From Candidatus Margulisiibacteriota bacterium (GTDB lineage Bacteria > Margulisbacteria > WOR-1 > O2-12-FULL-45-9), in assembly GCA_043816785.1 (NCBI GenBank), contig JBDRHP010000072.1, positions 1 to 14,789 on the forward strand: a DNA stretch of 14,789 bases, written 5' to 3'. Positions 1-12,000 of this stretch are shown here, piece by piece. The position numbers are program-made. The stretch's first letter is position 1. Every line of letters begins with the position of its first letter.

Positions 1-3000
1 GATCTTAAATATTACTGATAATTTGGCGAATGCCAAGACAGTTGGCTTTAAGAAAGGCCGGGCGGAAATGGAGAGCCTCTTCTATATTGAGAAAAGCTTC
101 AAGGATATGTTGTATGAGGCAATGTCAGGATCAGATACCCCGCCGGTTACTGTGGAGTACGGTACTGGGGTTAGAGTTGCCTCAACCCCTCGCGATTTCT
201 CCCAGGGCGGAATTGAAACGACCAATAATCCTCTAGATATAGCTGTTAAGGGCAACGGTTTTCTTATTTTTCAAATGCCGGACGGTACGGCGGCTTATGG
301 CCGGGCCGGCAACCTGCATCTTGATAATGATGGTAACCTGGTTGATCCCAATGGCCACAAACTTGATCCTGGGATCGTTTTTCCTGATGGGACTACCTCA
401 GTGGTTATTCAGCAGGATGGGATAATCCAGGCGGCAATTAACAATGAAACGACATTTACCGAGGTTGGTCAGATTAATTTGGCGCGTTTCACCAATAATG
501 GCGGCCTAAAGAGCATTGGCCAAAACCTCCTGCAGGCTACGGAGTCCTCCGGTGACCCCTACATTGGGGTCCCTGGCGAAGATGGTTTCGGGTCCATTAA
601 TCAGTTTGCTTTGGAGCAATCTAACGTTGATGTCATTACCGAAATGATGCGCATGGTCATGGTTCAGCGGGTTTTTGATACAGTAACCAAGGCTGTGCAG
701 TCATATGAAGGCATGCTCACCAGTATAGATAGAATGAAACAATAATGAAAATCAGAAAATTAGTATTAAATAGATTTTGGCTCTGTTGTCTGTTGGTCCT
801 GTTCTCTTCAGCTACTGCCTTTGCTTTGAAAGATCCCGAAGCAAAGCTTGCCAAAGTCATTGAGGATCATGTTGTTGCCGCCCATCCAAATTGGGCTGAA
901 CTTGATATCAGGATAACTTTTAAATTTGCCGATAAGACATTCAATGATCTGCGCAAGCTGAGTGAAAAAGCAAGCTTTACGGTTGTTGACGTTTATCAGG
1001 ACTTTCGGCCTGTTGGCAATGTGATTTTTCCGATCCAGATCAGCGATGAAGAGGTTAGCCGCAAGGTCTTTGTCCGGGCGCAGGTCGAGGTTTTTAAACC
1101 AGTAGTAGTTGTAAACAGGCTGATCAAGCGCGGTGAAACTATTGCTGAAGGGGATCTTGCGCTTGTGGCGCGAGATATTGCTATGCTGCCAGATAGTTAT
1201 TATGAGGATAAGGTTATGGTCATTGATACAGAGGCCAAGACGGCTATCCCTAAGAACAGCACGATCTTTAGATGGATGGTCAAGGAGATCCCGGTGGTAC
1301 GTCGAGGTGAAGAATTAACCATAAATATTAAAGGTGCTAATTTCCTGGTTAAAGCCCAGGGGATCGCTTTAATGGATGGCTATCTTGGAAAAAATGTGAA
1401 AGTTCGAAAAAAAGGTGTCAAGGACCCGAAAAAAATCCTGGAAGGCTTGCTGATTTCTTCCAAAGAAGTTGAGGTGGAGCTGTAATGACCAGACAAATTA
1501 GTTTTGGATTTTGCTTTTTGATTTTTGTCTTTGCCCTGGTTTTGCCATCATTAGCTGATGCGATCTGGAATGACAAGGAAAGCGCCTCACCATACAGTAC
1601 GGAAAGAGCTTACAAAACAGGTGATATCATTAATATTATTATTTTAGAAAGTACTACAGCGCAGAACCGCGCTGGCACCAAGACTGATATTAAGGATGAC
1701 CTGAGTGCTAAATTTACTCATACCCTTCAGCAGTTGGCGCCGGTGATCGGCACCAATAACCAGGCTGCTGGCCAGGCAGCAAATAAATATTCGGGGTCAG
1801 GCCAAACCTCGCGCGTCAGCAATGTTGAAGCGCGGATCGCTGCTTGGGTTACCGATGTTTTACCAAATGGCAACCTGATGATCAAGGGCAGGCACAAGGT
1901 CCAGGTTAATGACGAGATCCAGGAAATAAGCATTACCGGCAGTGTTCGGGCTAAAGACATCAGCGGGGCAAACACGGTTTTTTCATATCAGGTTGCTGAC
2001 GCGGAACTTATGGTCAAGGGGACTGGGGTGGTTGCTGAGTCTGAATCTCCGGGATGGTTTACCAGGATATTAAACTGGTTGTTTTAGGAGGATAAAGTGG
2101 TGCGACTTATTGCAATATTTGCTGTGCTCTGTGTTCTGAGTTCTGTGGCCCTTGCGGTCTCTCCAACTGTCAGGATCAAGGATATCGCCCATGTTCTGGA
2201 AGCCCGCGATAATCAATTAATGGGTTTTGGTTTAGTGGTCGGCTTGCGTAATAGCGGGGACAGAAGCAGCACAGGTTTTACCCAGCAGGCCTTGACTAAT
2301 CTTTTGTCGCGTATGGGGGTAGTGCCTCAATCCGTAGATTTTCGCTCTCGCAATGTGGCGGCAGTCATGGTCACAGCGACTTTGCCCCCATTTATCAAGC
2401 CGGGCCAAAAACTAGATATTACCGTCTCTTCGGTTGGTGACGCAACTTCTTTGCAGGGAGGGACCTTATTGGTCACCCCTCTGCACGGGGTTGATGACGA
2501 AGTCTACGCAGTTGCCCAGGGCAGCCTGCTGGTTGGTTTGGCGTCCGGGACGCCATCTGTTCCCTATATCAAGCAGCGGCAGACAACGGTCGGCAGAATA
2601 CCGGGAGGCGCGCTGGTTGAAAAGGAAGTGCCTGTTTCAATCGGTAATAAAGGTGTGGTGACGATTGTGCTGGATCAGCCGGATTTTACAACGGCAAACC
2701 GGGTTTCGGAGAGTATTCGTCGAGCAGGAATAGATGCCGAGGCAATGGATGCGGCAACCGTTACTGTTTCTCCTGGTACGGATATTAACCTGGTGAGGCT
2801 AGTTTCTCGAGTTGAGAATTTGACAATTGTGCCTGATGTGGTGGCTAAGATCGTTGTTAATGAGCGAACGGGCACGATCGTTATAGGTGAGAGTGTAAAA
2901 ATCTCTCCAGTGGCAGTTTCCTATGCCGGCATAGATGTTATTATCGGTGATGTGGCGCTATTCTCAGAGGGGACGGCGGGAGATTCCAGCCAGGACGATG

Positions 3001-9000: not shown

Positions 9001-12000
9001 TCACTGCCTTTTACACGATCCTGGTTGAAGGCGATGACATGAATGAGCCGATTGCTGACCATTCTCGCTCAATTCTTGACGGACATATCGTGTTATCGCG
9101 CGATCTGGCTGCCCGCAACCATTATCCGGCCATTGATGTGCCGCACAGCGTTTCCCGATTGATGACCAATTTGGTTTCAGATGAACATAAGCAGGCTGCC
9201 GGGAAATTAAGGGAAGTGCTGGCGCGCTACACCGAGGCAGAAGATTTGATCAATATAGGAGCTTATGTTAAAGGCAGCAATCCCAAGATCGATTTCGCGC
9301 TTTCCAAGATCGAACAGGTCAATGCTTTTTTAAAGCAAGGCACCTTTGATCAGGTTAAATATGAAGAGACGGTTAAGCGCTTACTTAGCGTCTTTGCTAA
9401 ATAATGGGGGCATAAAAAGTGGCTAAGCAGAAACCCGGTAAAAGATTTAAATATGATCTCCAGTCTGTTTTAAAAGTCAGAGCAATAAAAGAGAAAAAAG
9501 AACAGGAAATATTTGCTGAGAAGCAGCGTGATTTTCTAACTGAAAAGCAAAAAGAGGAAGCTATCGAGGAAAACAAAAGGAACAAAGAAGACGACCTGCG
9601 CGGCGTCTTTAAAAAAGGCCCGATCACTGATTTTTCTAAGGTCTTGTCCAGAAAGGCTCATCTTGAAGTATTGAAAGATAATCTGGACAAGCAAGTTGAA
9701 AAGGTCATTGAATCCAGCAAGCTGCTCGAAGAGCAGCGGGCGCGCCTCATCTCATCCATGAAAGATAAAAAGATCATGGAAAAGCACAAAGAGAAAAAGC
9801 TAAAAGAATACGATAAAATGATGCTAGATTTAGAGACAAAATTTCTGGATGAAATTGCGACCTCGCGTTTTAAACACAAGCAGTAAGCTTAGAGAGCCTT
9901 TTTGACTTTACCTGCCTTGAGGCATTTAGTGCAGACATATTCCTTGGTTTTTTTCCCGTTAATCAGTATGTTCATTTTTTGCAAATTGGGCCTAAATAAG
10001 CGTTTGGTGGAATTCATGCTGTGCGAGACCGTATTGCCGCTCCTGGCTTTTTTGCCGCATATAAAACATTTTCTGCTCATGATGTTTATAGTATATCATA
10101 AATATGTTAAAATGGCAACCTCACCCCCCGCTAGCGTTTAAGCCGCCTCCCCCCTCTCCATCTTCGATGGAGAGGGGGGAGGGAAAGCAATAACGTAAGC
10201 AGGGGGGTGAGGATTAAATGATAATGACAGTAAATCTGCAGACCCCAGTCCAATATCTTAAGGGCGTTGGCCCAAGAGCGGCCATGCTGCTGAAAAAACT
10301 CGGCGTATTGACCGTTGAGGACCTGATCTATTTTTTCCCCCGTGATTATGATGATCGAACCCAAGTTGCTTTGATTTCTGAACTGACCTCTGCCGATTAT
10401 CAGGTTATCAGAGGAGAAATTATAGATATTAGGCAGCAGCTTACCCGCAATCATTTCTCAGTTTTAAAGCTTAAAATTGCTGACCACTCAGGTTCTATCC
10501 AGGCGGTTTCGTTCAATCAGCCATATCTGGCGAGACTATTTCGCCCTGGAATGAAACTGATCATTTCCGGCAAGCTCGAATTCTCAAGCTTTGAAGGCAT
10601 TAATCAATTTATTGTGCGGGATTATGAGATAGATACAGGCGTTAACCCAAAGATCGTGCCGCTTTACCCATTAACTAAAGGCCTTTTTCCCAAGAAGTTA
10701 CGGAATATTGCCAAAACAGCTCTGGATAATTGTTTGGCCGACATTGAGGAATGGCTACCGGAAGAGTTGCGCTTAAAGCACAAATTGTGCGGTCTGTGCG
10801 AAGCGATAGAGCATCTGCATTTCCCGGCCAAGCTTTCCCAAACAGTGCCGGCCCGCAGGAGACTGGCTTTTGATGATTTTTTTATATTTCAGCTTGGCTT
10901 GGGTTTGCGCCAGAGCAGGATAAAAGCTGAGGCAGGCATTTCATACAATATTGACCAAAGAATGCTGAATGATCTCCAGGAGGCCTTGCCTTTTAAGCTT
11001 ACTTCGGCACAGGAAAGAGTCTTAAAGGAAATACAGGCTGATATGCAAAGCAATCATCCCATGAACCGCTTGCTGCAGGGTGATGTCGGGTCTGGAAAGA
11101 CGATTATCGCCGCTCTATCTTCATTATTAGCCATTCACAATGGCTATCAAGTAGCTTTGATGGCGCCGACTGAGATCCTGGCGCAGCAGCATTATGATAA
11201 GATCATCAGACTACCAGGATATCAGAAGATCAGAGTTGGGTTATTAACTGGCGCGACCCGGAAGAATAAACAGGTGGAAAAGCTAGACAAACACGACTTG
11301 ATAATTGGCACGCATGCTTTGATCCAAGATAAGGTTAACTTTGAAAAATTGGGATTGGTCATCATTGATGAACAGCACCGTTTTGGCGTGCAGCAGCGGG
11401 CGCAATTGGTAAAAAAAGGGGTCAACCCTGATTTTTTGGTCATGACTGCCACGCCGATTCCCAGGTCACTGGCCCTGACACTCTATGGCGATCTTGACCG
11501 CTCGGTGATTGATGAGTTGCCTCCAGGCAGGACGCCGGTCAAGACCTACTTTGTGCCTGAAGATAAACGGCGCGGCGCTTACGAATTTATGCGTCAGCAA
11601 ATAAAGGCTGGCCGCCAGGTTTTTATTGTCTGTCCGCTGGTTGAGGAATCGTCAAAGGTTGACCTAAAGGCGGCTCTGGATGAGGCCGAGCGCTTGCAAC
11701 GTGATATTTTTCCGGAATTGACGGTTGGCCTGCTGCATGGCAGGCTAAAGAGTGAGGCCAAGGATCAGGTCATGAAGCAATTTAAAGATGGCCAGATCCA
11801 GATACTGGTCTCCACAACAGTGATTGAAGTGGGGATTGATATACCGAATGCCACTGTTATGGTGGTGGAGCACGCCGAAAGGTTTGGTTTGTCGCAGTTG
11901 CATCAGTTGCGCGGCCGGATAGGCCGCGGGGCAAAGCAATCACACTGCTTTTTGCTGGCAGACGCTAAATCCCAAGAGTCCCGGGCCAGGATCAAGGCAA

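Follow-up and report, generated by a model that had tools for sequence, protein, structure and literature searches.

The basal body of Buchnera aphidicola is described as the product of 26 genes that forms no filament, secretes SyeA and retains FlgK (PMC13468123). Non-flagellar type III secretion systems, which include a secretin-less form in the Myxococcales, are told apart from flagella by flgB, flgC and fliE, the flagellum-specific markers (Abby and Rocha 2012, PMC3459982). A natural FliF-FliG fusion of about 330 aa, ending in FliG-M, is reported from Chlamydia (Bergeron 2016, PMC4768692), and in the non-flagellated Lysobacter enzymogenes flagellar export genes are reported to have been kept and repurposed (PMC7688988, PMC9927559).

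Here, a window of 14,789 nucleotides, the whole stretch of DNA from a Candidatus Margulisiibacteriota genome (G000) that was analysed, was compared with other Margulisbacteria genomes (G-numbers; C-numbers denote contigs of G000), the samples being 146 genomes for the phylum, 65 for class WOR-1 and 31 for the order of this genome. Our literature search found no paper describing the system encoded there. We consider it likely that the window holds operon A of an ancient, phylum-wide flagellum paralogue working as a dedicated, non-rotating type III protein-export machine, which, judging from its genes, probably delivers proteins out of the cell and does not serve swimming.

The hook-basal-body gene set

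The window carries half of a hook-basal-body system common to Margulisbacteria, with FliF present in 132 of the 146 genomes. Both this count and the operon from flgG to fliJ at positions 2 to 9886 agree with the genome-wide survey's note. The genes are, in order:

2 to 745, forward strand: flgG, distal rod, 5' truncated; Pfam LlgE_F_G_D1 (6e-20) and Flg_bbr_C; begins at about residue 19, its 5' end falling in the gap to C34; 70% identical to the FlgG of G017 from residue 19
745 to 1485, forward strand: flgA, P-ring chaperone; ChapFlgA (1.7e-22)
1485 to 2087, forward strand: flgH, L ring; FlgH (8.9e-46)
2097 to 3194, forward strand: flgI, P ring; FlgI (5.8e-112)
3194 to 3469, forward strand: ORF of 91 aa in the flgJ position; no Pfam or NCBIfam match
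3466 to 4200, forward strand: FliA/WhiG-like sigma factor; Sigma70_r2 and r4; TIGR02479 at 133 bits, under the 189.6 cut-off
4193 to 4498, forward strand: flgB, proximal rod; Flg_bb_rod (1.8e-5)
4505 to 4939, forward strand: flgC, proximal rod; Flg_bbr_C (1e-12) and Flg_bb_rod
4952 to 5320, forward strand: fliE; FliE (8.9e-14)
5354 to 6916, forward strand: fliF, MS ring; YscJ_FliF (8e-60); YscJ_FliF_C matched at profile positions 88-147 only
6916 to 7389, forward strand: short fliG, 157 aa; FliG_N and FliG_M matches, none to FliG_C
7396 to 8094, forward strand: fliH; FliH (1e-20)
8091 to 9404, forward strand: fliI, export ATPase; TIGR03497 at 671 bits, above cut-off; falls inside the paralogue clade
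9419 to 9886, forward strand: fliJ; FliJ (1.9e-7) and YscO-like (7.8e-6); end of the operon, with rpmB next on the opposite strand

Genes for the rod and for the MS, P and L rings are thus all present in this operon. Elsewhere in the genome, C34 carries a fliK-like gene, an FlhB-C-like gene and codons 1-32 of flgF, the N-terminus of FliK stands at the end of C105, and fliN to flhA lie on C89 and C70, with FlhA residues 261-345 in a gap. The FliPQR, FlhB and FlhA encoded on the last two contigs, together with FliH, FliI and FliJ from the window, make up the export gate and ATPase complex; FlhA scores 755 bits as FlhA against 658 as SctV. The 91-aa ORF had been overlooked by the earlier note. 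Nearly all loci seen have an ORF of 74-211 aa at that position, and the one in G134 matches, at 29%, the protein that a canonical operon encodes in the flgJ position; by its position, the window's ORF probably encodes a rod-cap protein resembling the FlgJ N-domain.

The same note had spoken of a basal-body system while allowing for a short hook-like tip, and the genes of relatives agree with the latter. A short FlgE-like gene, the hook gene by synteny (fliK-flgD-flgE-fliM), occurs in 111 of the 146 genomes and in 13 of 15 of the same family, and falls in an assembly gap in G000; hook-position genes of 261-299 aa are also found in canonical operons of several outgroup loci. Gene content in relatives indicates that the basal body bears a hook. 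The reported absence of FlgD held for the same-family loci (0 of 5 checked) and not beyond, as FlgD-like genes scoring below cut-off are present in single-contig G031 and in G039, G127, G129, G131 and others.

With the flagellar hook-basal body, the system shares the gate, ATPase complex, MS ring, FliM/FliN ring, rod, P and L rings, hook, FliK and FliA-like sigma factor, as well as the order fliK-flgD-flgE-fliM-fliN-fliO-fliP-fliQ-fliR-flhB-flhA. It differs in having no FlgK, FliD, flagellin or recognisable FlgM, in a FliG without its C domain, in a FliF without most of the beta-collar, in the absence of a stator in this order, and in forming a separate clade alongside true flagella. It resembles injectisomes in being a type III core without motor or filament, but FlgB, FlgC and FliE, whose absence marks the non-flagellar systems in the scheme of Abby and Rocha, are retained in the window, and the outer membrane would be crossed by P and L rings. 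Two secretins are encoded in G000 (C11 and C44) and secretins are also found in G016, a single-contig genome; none of them is near the three loci of the system.

Relationship to canonical flagella

Two fliF genes were found in each of the 13 genomes that have a canonical flagellum (G098-G110), and in all seven of these that were fetched the second copy lies within an operon syntenic with the window, whose gene order was seen in 20 of 20 fetched loci. In a tree of FliI, the 18 paralogue sequences form one clade (SH-aLRT 100), separate from the 79 outgroup rows, 9 of which are canonical copies from Margulisbacteria, and 26 paralogue FliF sequences likewise form one clade with support 100 (FastTree). 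The second copy in flagellated genomes and these two well-supported clades show the system to be a paralogue, not a flagellum in decay. FlgK_D1 exceeds its cut-off in 13 of 146 genomes, exactly those with the canonical flagellum, so that even flagellated Margulisbacteria have no FlgK for the paralogue system. The earlier description of a reduced flagellum therefore stands as regards the missing filament, and its conservation in relatives was confirmed (a short FliG in 37 of 41, two of them single-contig genomes that share the gene order), but the sequences indicate a phylum-wide paralogue kept next to a full flagellum, not a reduced flagellum of WOR-1.

This also sets it apart from the described cases. 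As in Buchnera, a filament-less flagellar structure is kept, with neither filament nor motor in G000, and protein export may be a further likeness. Whereas the published Buchnera structure is a host-restricted remnant of its only flagellum (PMC13468123), the Margulisbacteria system is found in mostly environmental genomes, has FliF and FliG in remodelled form and a promoter motif and late locus of its own, and appears as a separate clade beside canonical flagella, not as the remnant of its lineage's own motility flagellum. The export genes of Lysobacter enzymogenes, as reported, are a genus-level remnant and not a paralogue whose rod, rings and hook are conserved throughout a phylum.

That the system is a decaying flagellum, or that its missing genes are artefacts of assembly or detection, is hardly credible and already largely refuted. 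G000 is indeed 87% complete, with gaps inside flgF-flgG, flhA and fliK-fliM, and diverged homologues can slip past profiles, FlgD being an example. However, the same genes are absent from single-contig G016 and G031, in line with the survey's statement that no assembly gap is responsible; 13 genomes carry the system beside a complete flagellum; its sequences are conserved and open in every class sampled; and a search of all frames of G000 with flagellin, FlgK, FlgL and rod/hook proteins returned nothing beyond the rod genes already identified and neighbours unrelated to them. FlhA identity of 76-100% among the best 120 homologues is likewise not the pattern of decay.

Rotor, stator and filament components

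Counts of the motility genes matched those reported before: Flagellin_N in one WOR-1 genome (15 of 146 in the phylum), FliG_C in four, and MotA_ExbB over cut-off and FliD_C in none of five near-closed relatives. Neither FliG_C nor MotB_plug was detected in the 31 genomes of this order, and tblastn of G000 with WOR-1 MotA, MotB and FliF-FliG fusion sequences gave no match. The label 'stator-less' is accurate for the order and too broad for the phylum, in which MotB_plug matches 59 of 146 genomes, four of them WOR-1; likewise, CheW, said to be lacking, is present in one of five genomes tested (G040).

FliG had been called an N-domain-only protein without torque-generating domains. Profile matches and an alignment of 19 sequences show a FliF-binding N lobe, a linker and an M lobe with ERPQ, without the C-terminal torque domain. 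In the structural model (pLDDT 85), lobe 1 matches FliG-N 5tdy (TM by target 0.66) and lobe 2 matches FliG-M as bound to FliM, 4qrm (TM by target 0.81, rmsd 2.0 A), so the missing C domain was correctly noted and the M lobe was missed. FliF is reduced as well: the RBM3 insert between the last two strands has a median of 12 residues in 26 paralogue sequences, versus 80 and 87.5 in the canonical sets, and in the window FliF this beta-collar insert comprises about 16 residues.

By their genes, this genome and its order appear to have no hook-filament junction, filament, cap, FliG torque domain or MotA/MotB stator. Because complete relatives have no stator, FliG-C, FlgK, FliD or flagellin, and most of the FliF insert is lost too, the survey's reading of a non-rotating, flagellum-derived structure finds support in this genome and its order; its term 'envelope machine' undersells the motif-linked candidate exported proteins considered below.

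Outside WOR-1, many Margulisbacteria have MotA-MotB genes next to a gene for a FliF-FliG fusion, as do 4 of the 65 WOR-1 genomes; the fusion was not found in G000. Both this protein and the Chlamydia fusion are natural FliF-FliG fusions in non-flagellated bacteria; relative to the published form (PMC4768692), the Margulisbacteria protein is longer (about 475-550 aa), contains RBM3, FliG-M and FliG-C, and usually precedes motA-motB. One could imagine an ancestral rotary machine with a novel filament, in which MotA-MotB acted on a ring of this fusion and of which WOR-1 lineages like this one are a non-rotating remnant, although we regard this as very improbable. The fusion would provide three parts not found in the operon's proteins: FliG-M, FliG-C and an RBM3 that has its insert. 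In 21 of 30 loci motA is the next gene after it; in G083 it lies just upstream of operon A; and the G039 module is located between murF and fliK-flgD-flgE, where G016, G017, G031, G036 and G040 have no protein gene. Yet the module is located elsewhere in G129, G131 and most other fetched loci, and look-alike fusions are commonest in clusters of Elusimicrobiota, Cloacimonadota and Bdellovibrionota, so that it looks like an independent rotor-stator module. Most of the canonical rotor-stator charged residues are missing from it, and the scenario does not apply to an order in which MotB_plug and FliG_C are found in none of 31 genomes.

Promoter motif, late locus and probable protein export

A sigma-28-like motif, GCAAG-N17-CGATA, was found upstream of both fliK-like genes, as in 12 of 13 relatives' regions, and of about a dozen orphan genes whose products lack signal peptides and have type III-like N-termini. 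Exact matches in G000 number 19, of which 15 are intergenic and 14 lie within 150 bp of a same-strand gene; eleven other spacers (12-23) gave 1-5 matches each, with 0-1 intergenic. All 65 WOR-1 genomes contain the motif (6-36 matches versus 0-5 for the reversed control), and in families f19-f43 the exact form is scarcely above control. Its -10 part resembles that of the FliA consensus, and its -35 part differs. Two FliA/WhiG-like sigma factors, that of the window and one on C86, both matching TIGR02479 below cut-off, are candidate readers; FlgM was not detected over cut-off in five of five genomes.

Fifteen of the 19 motif-driven genes encode proteins without a hydrophobic N-terminus. By our own, crude ORF and signal-peptide calls and with the two fliK-like genes included, residues 2-31 of these proteins are 48% S/T/N/Q/P/G compared with 30% in 986 background ORFs (p 2e-8), and 13% K/R/L compared with 26% (p 1e-6). 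The other four have signal-peptide-like N-termini, so the regulon is not type III cargo alone. Cargo-like domains in the encoded proteins include metallophosphoesterase, NAGPA, TPR with a weak transglutaminase, and fn3, with a protein kinase in G016. The motif-driven set changes fast and consists of lineage-specific orphans: among 30 loci of G016, only three of the genes behind an intergenic motif have a G000 match. A dedicated promoter motif tying the system to candidate exported proteins favours protein export.

Two dedicated sigma factors tied to the operons, near-universality in the phylum as expected of a housekeeping structure, and the structural relationship of FliF RBM3 to SpoIIIAG (as given in PMC4768692) might instead suggest a cell-to-cell or developmental channel, like the SpoIIIA-SpoIIQ conduit or a nanotube core, with the sigmas running a differentiation programme. 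Such a channel likewise seems very improbable, as a full rod, P and L rings, a hook and a FliK ruler indicate an axial conduit directed outward, and the fast turnover of the motif-driven genes also speaks against it.

In the protein-export machine that we favour, the gate would sit inside an MS ring of collar-less FliF, and the two-lobed FliG would join FliF to a FliM-like/FliN ring holding FliH-FliI-FliJ, as the scaffold of a sorting platform and not as a rotor. The rod (FliE, FlgB, FlgC, FlgF and FlgG) and the P and L rings would span wall and outer membrane, the conduit ending in a short hook whose length FliK measures. The FliA-like sigma would read the motif and turn on the fliK-flgE-gate operon and late genes that stand in for FlgK, FlgL, FliD and flagellin; lineage-specific enzymes without signal peptides would be candidate cargo. 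In this genome's order nothing would be present to turn the machine.

In relatives, the motif also marks a conserved late locus encoding two small helical-hairpin proteins (N1 and N2), a giant protein in which hydrophobic hairpins recur, and a phylum-wide protein, D, alongside other conserved helical proteins and a glycosyltransferase. Profiles of N1, N2, B, D and the giant protein found nothing in G000; as C22 ends where the locus starts in G016, the locus probably lies in an assembly gap, which is not bridged. N1 and N2 are tandem paralogues (hhalign 75%, E 2.5e-5) and candidate filament or needle subunits. Against needle, rod and flagellin families (Pfam, PDB sequences), nothing rose above noise, the best being Flagellin_C at 0.045 in 1 of 19. 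The giant protein, found in only 58 of 146 genomes, is a repeated coiled coil plus hydrophobic hairpin and a candidate pore former; all 12 examined contain 2-6 long hydrophobic segments and lack a signal peptide. SseC matched it below cut-off in 2 of 12 segments (4.5e-6 and 0.0047) and 1 of 31 whole proteins, and SctF, SctI and SctE families gave no match over a cut-off. From this anatomy we infer the possible needle and translocon roles, for which the family comparisons failed.

A truncated FliG could serve the scaffold role of SctK, and the tandem hairpin genes and hydrophobic-hairpin protein recall needle or inner rod and translocator. More tentatively, the system may be a third, ancient type III branch, in which a flagellar hook-basal body was independently turned into a device for contact-dependent injection that kept rod, P and L rings and a short hook in place of a secretin, with small needle-like subunits for flagellin and a tandem-repeat pore former delivering phosphatases, kinases and proteases into host or prey. 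If so, these uncultured relatives of cyanobacteria, with their small genomes, would lead a symbiotic or predatory life that has gone unrecognised.

Alternatively, the structure might serve attachment only. Hairpin proteins would then form a glycosylated non-flagellin filament on the hook, the giant protein would act as adhesin or anchor, and the enzymes would be ordinary co-regulated proteins, with no delivery to another cell. A GT2-TPR glycosyltransferase, of a type that modifies flagellins and pilins, lies within the late locus in most of 20 loci, signal-peptide proteins belong to the regulon, and the paralogy of N1 and N2 would suit filament subunits. We nevertheless consider this unlikely: hydrolase and kinase domains behind polar, low-complexity N-termini without signal peptides require an export route or a cytoplasmic role, and the giant protein's hydrophobic segments suit a membrane-inserting exported protein better than an adhesin.

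Protein D is encoded in 128 of 146 genomes and in 72 of 72 high-quality ones. It was compared with known structures as a possible counterpart of the gatekeeper SctW: its model is all-helical (pLDDT 70.7), with no Foldseek match at E 0.001, and the best Z, 8.6 over 60 residues, was with helices of unrelated proteins. The late cluster stands directly before the short flgE in three genomes of another lineage.

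Gene content and paralogy of the system

In the studied genome (G000, Candidatus Margulisiibacteriota, class WOR-1), the system is encoded at the following places:

Window 2-9886, one strand: operon A, encoding FlgG, FlgA, FlgH, FlgI, a 91-aa ORF, a FliA/WhiG-like sigma factor (3466-4200), FlgB, FlgC, FliE, FliF, a 157-aa FliG, FliH, FliI and FliJ
Contig C34: fliK-like gene, FlhB-C-like gene and the start of flgF
Contigs C89 and C70: fliN to flhA
Contig C105: start of a second fliK-like gene
Contig C86: a pair of small genes plus the second sigma factor gene (1519-2148)

The operon content reported in the genome-wide survey's note (rod, rings, MS ring, FliG and FliH-FliI-FliJ) was confirmed in window 2-9886, and homologues carry the names WOR-1, Saganbacteria or Margulisbacteria in their source records. 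The note had read the system as a non-rotating, flagellum-derived envelope machine; it is a separate paralogue, present beside true flagella in some genomes. Gene content, paralogy, domain losses and promoter motif are computed observations. FliF was detected in 132 of the 146 genomes of the phylum set, twice in each of the 13 genomes G098-G110. One copy of the flagellated genomes lies in a canonical operon with a FliG of 333-343 aa. The other shows the gene order of the window and a short FliG in all 7 flagellated genomes among 20 fetched loci; the remaining 13 loci have the same order, 8 of them ending after fliG. A FliI tree was calculated with IQ-TREE in quick mode from 106 rows, with 79 of 80 loci as outgroup (L166 was left out as a possible duplicate). 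In this tree, 18 system copies form one clade with an SH-aLRT of 100, apart from 9 canonical copies, and a FliF tree (FastTree, 100 rows) is likewise split into system and canonical copies with a support of 100. Both trees were drawn at midpoint and include no injectisome, so that they do not date the duplication. The system is a paralogue, not a remnant of a flagellum. One FliI record labelled Rickettsiales (L172) nests inside the Margulisbacteria system clade; mislabelling, misbinning or transfer are possible causes.

Downstream of operon A, window 9889-14430 contains housekeeping genes in an order kept in relatives: rpmB, followed by recG-, rsmD-, coaD- and rph-like genes, the latter named from sequence. 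On C86 (L158:1519-2591), genes of about 90-130 aa and 67 aa precede the gene of a 210-aa sigma factor, a group located 3' of flhA in relatives; on C70, flhA is followed by the gene of an unrelated 827-aa surface protein. On C105, as in most relatives, murF and the fliK-like promoter are separated by a tRNA-like gene (L004:290-375). Between flgA and flgH, G031 encodes panD (Asp_decarbox 5e-49, L019:14085-14423) and nine other genomes (G099, G100, G106, G107, G109, G110, G113, G129 and G134) encode an ORF of 116-127 aa; the window has neither. In several lineages (L119, L120, L122, L123, L125, L126, L128 and L129), an unannotated gene of 249-421 aa directly follows fliP, sitting between fliP and fliQ wherever the locus includes fliQ.

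Hook, rotor and motor module

The absence of flagellin, filament cap and MotA, which the note had listed, holds in complete relatives too. Flagellin_N matches were obtained in 15 of the 146 genomes, FlgK_D1 exceeded its cut-off in 13 of 146, and neither FliD_C nor MotA_ExbB did so in any of the 5 genomes tested. Rod, hook, junction and flagellin proteins, searched against G000 in every frame, returned only the known rod genes. The sole Flagellin_N match in the class, a 251-aa protein of G019 (L051:8178-8930; 7e-16), was rejected as a filament: it has a hydrophobic N-terminus and lies outside any flagellar locus. CheW, which the note had listed without matches, was found in 1 of 5 genomes tested. 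In this genome, G040, two CheW-domain genes are located beside a secretin gene (C4:29775-36215), an arrangement that suggests a pilus-linked chemosensory cluster.

The idea of a bare basal body had to be given up. Relatives encode a short FlgE in the order fliK-(flgD)-flgE-fliM-fliN, detected at E 1e-25 in 111 of 146 genomes and in 13 of the 15 members of the family. FlgD was said to be absent, and indeed flgD is lacking in 5 of 5 same-family loci; FlgD-like genes, scoring below the family cut-offs, are nevertheless present in G031, G039, G127, G129, G131 and others. With a short FlgE and, in some genomes, a FlgD-like protein, the system corresponds to a hook-basal body.

FliG, previously described as restricted to its N-domain, has two lobes, N and M, in a structural model of the 157-aa protein (pLDDT 85, from 19 sequences); these match FliG-N as bound to FliF (5tdy) and FliG-M as bound to FliM (4qrm). 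At the site of the EHPQR motif, whose role is FliM binding, the short FliG has ERPQ. EHPQR is the motif described for canonical FliG-M (PMC6290876). FliF is remodelled as well: the stretch inserted between the last two RBM3 strands measures 12 residues (median) in 26 system copies, compared with 80 and 87.5 in canonical sets. In flagella this insert forms a collar around the rod, so its loss fits the loss of torque.

FliG_C was found in 64 of 146 genomes, mostly within a fusion of 475-550 aa composed of a signal peptide, FliF_C, one membrane helix, FliG_M and FliG_C, and followed by MotA and a MotB (L049:3096-6017 in G039; also L048, L050, L053 and L059-L088). MotA comes directly after the fusion in 21 of 30 loci, and MotB_plug was detected in 59 of 146 genomes. 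Within the class, FliG_C and MotB_plug are confined to G039, G134, G129 and G131; the motor module is absent from G000 and its order, so the description of the system as stator-less stands there. The module heads the fliK-flgE operon in G039, and in G083 the fusion lies 5' of operon A; in other loci it is unlinked to the system. Look-alike FliF-FliG fusions are commonest in other phyla. We treat the fusion with MotA and MotB as a separate rotor-stator module that is perhaps linked to the system. A FliF-FliG fusion has been described for Chlamydia, and its architecture differs from that of the Margulisbacteria fusion (PMC4768692).

The module is independent of flagella, yet it also occurs in flagellated genomes, some of which have a second FliG-MC gene. 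A conserved protein of 350-430 aa is often encoded 5' of the fusion, and WOR-1 motor modules have LysM at the MotB C-terminus. Four WOR-1 modules (L059-L062) have Lys in MotA for the canonical Glu and Glu/Asp in the fusion for the canonical FliG Arg. This may be a reciprocal rotor-stator charge swap; as 17 further MotA rows lack it, it was regarded as the trait of a single lineage and was not used as support.

Promoter motif and late locus

GCAAG-N17-CGATA is common to the regions upstream of both fliK-like genes (12 of 13 regions by pattern), and flgF is preceded by a sigma-70-type TTGACA/TATAAT promoter in G000 and family members. Of 19 exact matches in G000, 15 are intergenic and 14 have a same-strand gene no more than 150 bp away; control spacers of 12-16 and 18-23 gave 1-5 matches with 0-1 intergenic. 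Per genome, the class (65 genomes) shows 6-36 exact matches, versus 0-5 for a reversed control. Enrichment was also seen in G110, G111, G116 and G117, and barely so in families f19-f43. The canonical sigma-28 pattern, TAAA-N14-16-GCCGAT, was set aside, its matches being scattered (30 of 243 loci). FlgM was not found over the cut-off in 5 genomes. The gene of 67-74 aa before the second sigma factor (67 aa in G000) is a candidate for an anti-sigma factor gene.

Among the 19 motif-driven genes of G000, 15 encode proteins without a hydrophobic N-terminus. Over the first 30 residues, these proteins are enriched in S/T/N/Q/P/G (0.48 vs 0.30, p 2e-8) and depleted in K/R/L (0.13 vs 0.26, p 1e-6) relative to a background of 986 of 1337 ORFs, the ORF and signal-peptide calls being crude ones of our own. 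This is the known bias of type III signals. Domain assignments were usable in 5 of 17 motif-driven proteins scanned: metallophosphoesterase, NAGPA, TPR with a weak transglutaminase, fn3/Ig, and TPR. On C58 (L283:1222-1425), the motif precedes a 67-aa ORF that lacks a signal peptide and, by eye, resembles a single LysM domain.

In G016, a genome in a single contig, the stretch at 184.7-222.0 kb contains 11 of the 47 relaxed-motif matches. Besides small ORFs (67-101 aa), this island has genes for proteins A (707 aa), B, C and D (521 aa), for a GT2-TPR glycosyltransferase and a protein kinase, and for further proteins with lengths of 764-3068 aa. A-D are homologous to genes directly 5' of the short flgE in G052, G055 and G080. 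Protein D is present in 128 of 146 genomes, in 72 of 72 high-quality ones and in 14 of 15 in the family; a homologue search yielded 17 proteins, all named ones from Margulisbacteria, and neither a PDB sequence search nor a fold search of its model gave an informative match. The order giant-small-small-N1-N2-A-B-C-GT-D recurs among 20 loci around D, with N1 assigned by position in 14 and N2 in 18.

N1 and N2 are paralogous helical hairpins. Pfam and PDB sequence searches returned no needle or rod family for them, and their profiles matched neither the genes of roughly 400 aa near fliP nor the regulon proteins of G000. In each of the 12 cases examined, the giant protein (1470-2388 aa) lacks a signal peptide and has 2-6 long hydrophobic segments rich in Gly/Ala; its repeat profile, with up to 6 matched stretches in each of 111 representatives, was found in 58 of 146 genomes and 12 of 15 in the family. 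SseC matches all fell below the cut-off, and a MakA/NheA-type pore former, the best PDB sequence match (E 0.03), was too weak to be accepted. The giant-protein profile matches nothing in three of the four WOR-1 genomes with a motor module (G039, G134 and G131) and gives only a weak match in the fourth, a possible anti-correlation on very few genomes.

None of the late-locus genes was found in the G000 assembly, where contig C22 breaks off at the gene located ahead of the island in G016. Coverage of the organism is thin in the metagenome runs containing it, and the C22 edge occurs in no metagenome contig searched. C105 is covered by contigs of 3 runs at a depth of about 2-6 in short pieces, with the gap unbridged. 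An identical 31-base stretch at six contig ends (C42, C58, C60, C61, C79 and C85) is probably the terminus of a repeat at which the assembly breaks.

Proposed function and comparison with known systems

We infer the roles in assembly, export and late-gene function as follows. The gate, ATPase, MS ring and a FliG-FliM-FliN platform would export rod, rings and a short hook; the FliA-like sigma factor would then turn on late genes, whose products would travel through the conduit. These may include hairpin subunits, perhaps extending the conduit, a membrane-inserting protein and variable enzymes. The system is real and conserved, and it is a variant of the type III family with a list of candidate substrates, which goes beyond the earlier note. 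We think it likely that it is a dedicated protein export machine; full injection into another cell is a more doubtful proposition.

The injectisome is thought to derive once from the flagellum, and we know of no record of a rod-retaining intermediate. A conserved system, found across a phylum, that has kept rod, rings and hook and lost the torque, the filament and the junction would be a present-day counterpart of this step, with a true flagellum available for comparison inside the same genomes. It would work like an injectisome and like the Buchnera basal body, being a member of neither family. Unlike an injectisome, it has no linked secretin and keeps flgB, flgC and fliE, the flagellum markers of Abby and Rocha (PMC3459982). 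The Buchnera basal body lacks a filament and has been linked to the secreted SyeA (PMC13468123), whereas the Margulisbacteria system is not a remnant of the lineage's own flagellum. A survey of flagellar loss (10.1101/2024.12.05.626484) poses rotor proteins in the absence of a filament as a question still open.

As the note had stated for papers on Margulisbacteria and Saganbacteria, we found no description of the system in the literature searched, with supplements and subscription papers outside its scope. The main text of PMC6349859 contains no flagell or secretion terms, and those of PMC13277936 and 10.1101/2024.12.05.626484 no Margulis term; their supplements may tabulate these genomes.

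Margulisbacteria are uncultured and little is known of how they live; the motif yields a short, testable list of candidate substrates. Flagellar gene counts would score most of these bacteria as motile or partial, though the genes belong to another machine. Outside the phylum, a deltaproteobacterial flagellar operon (L169) encodes two consecutive FliF-like ORFs of 446 and 491 aa, followed by a full FliG.
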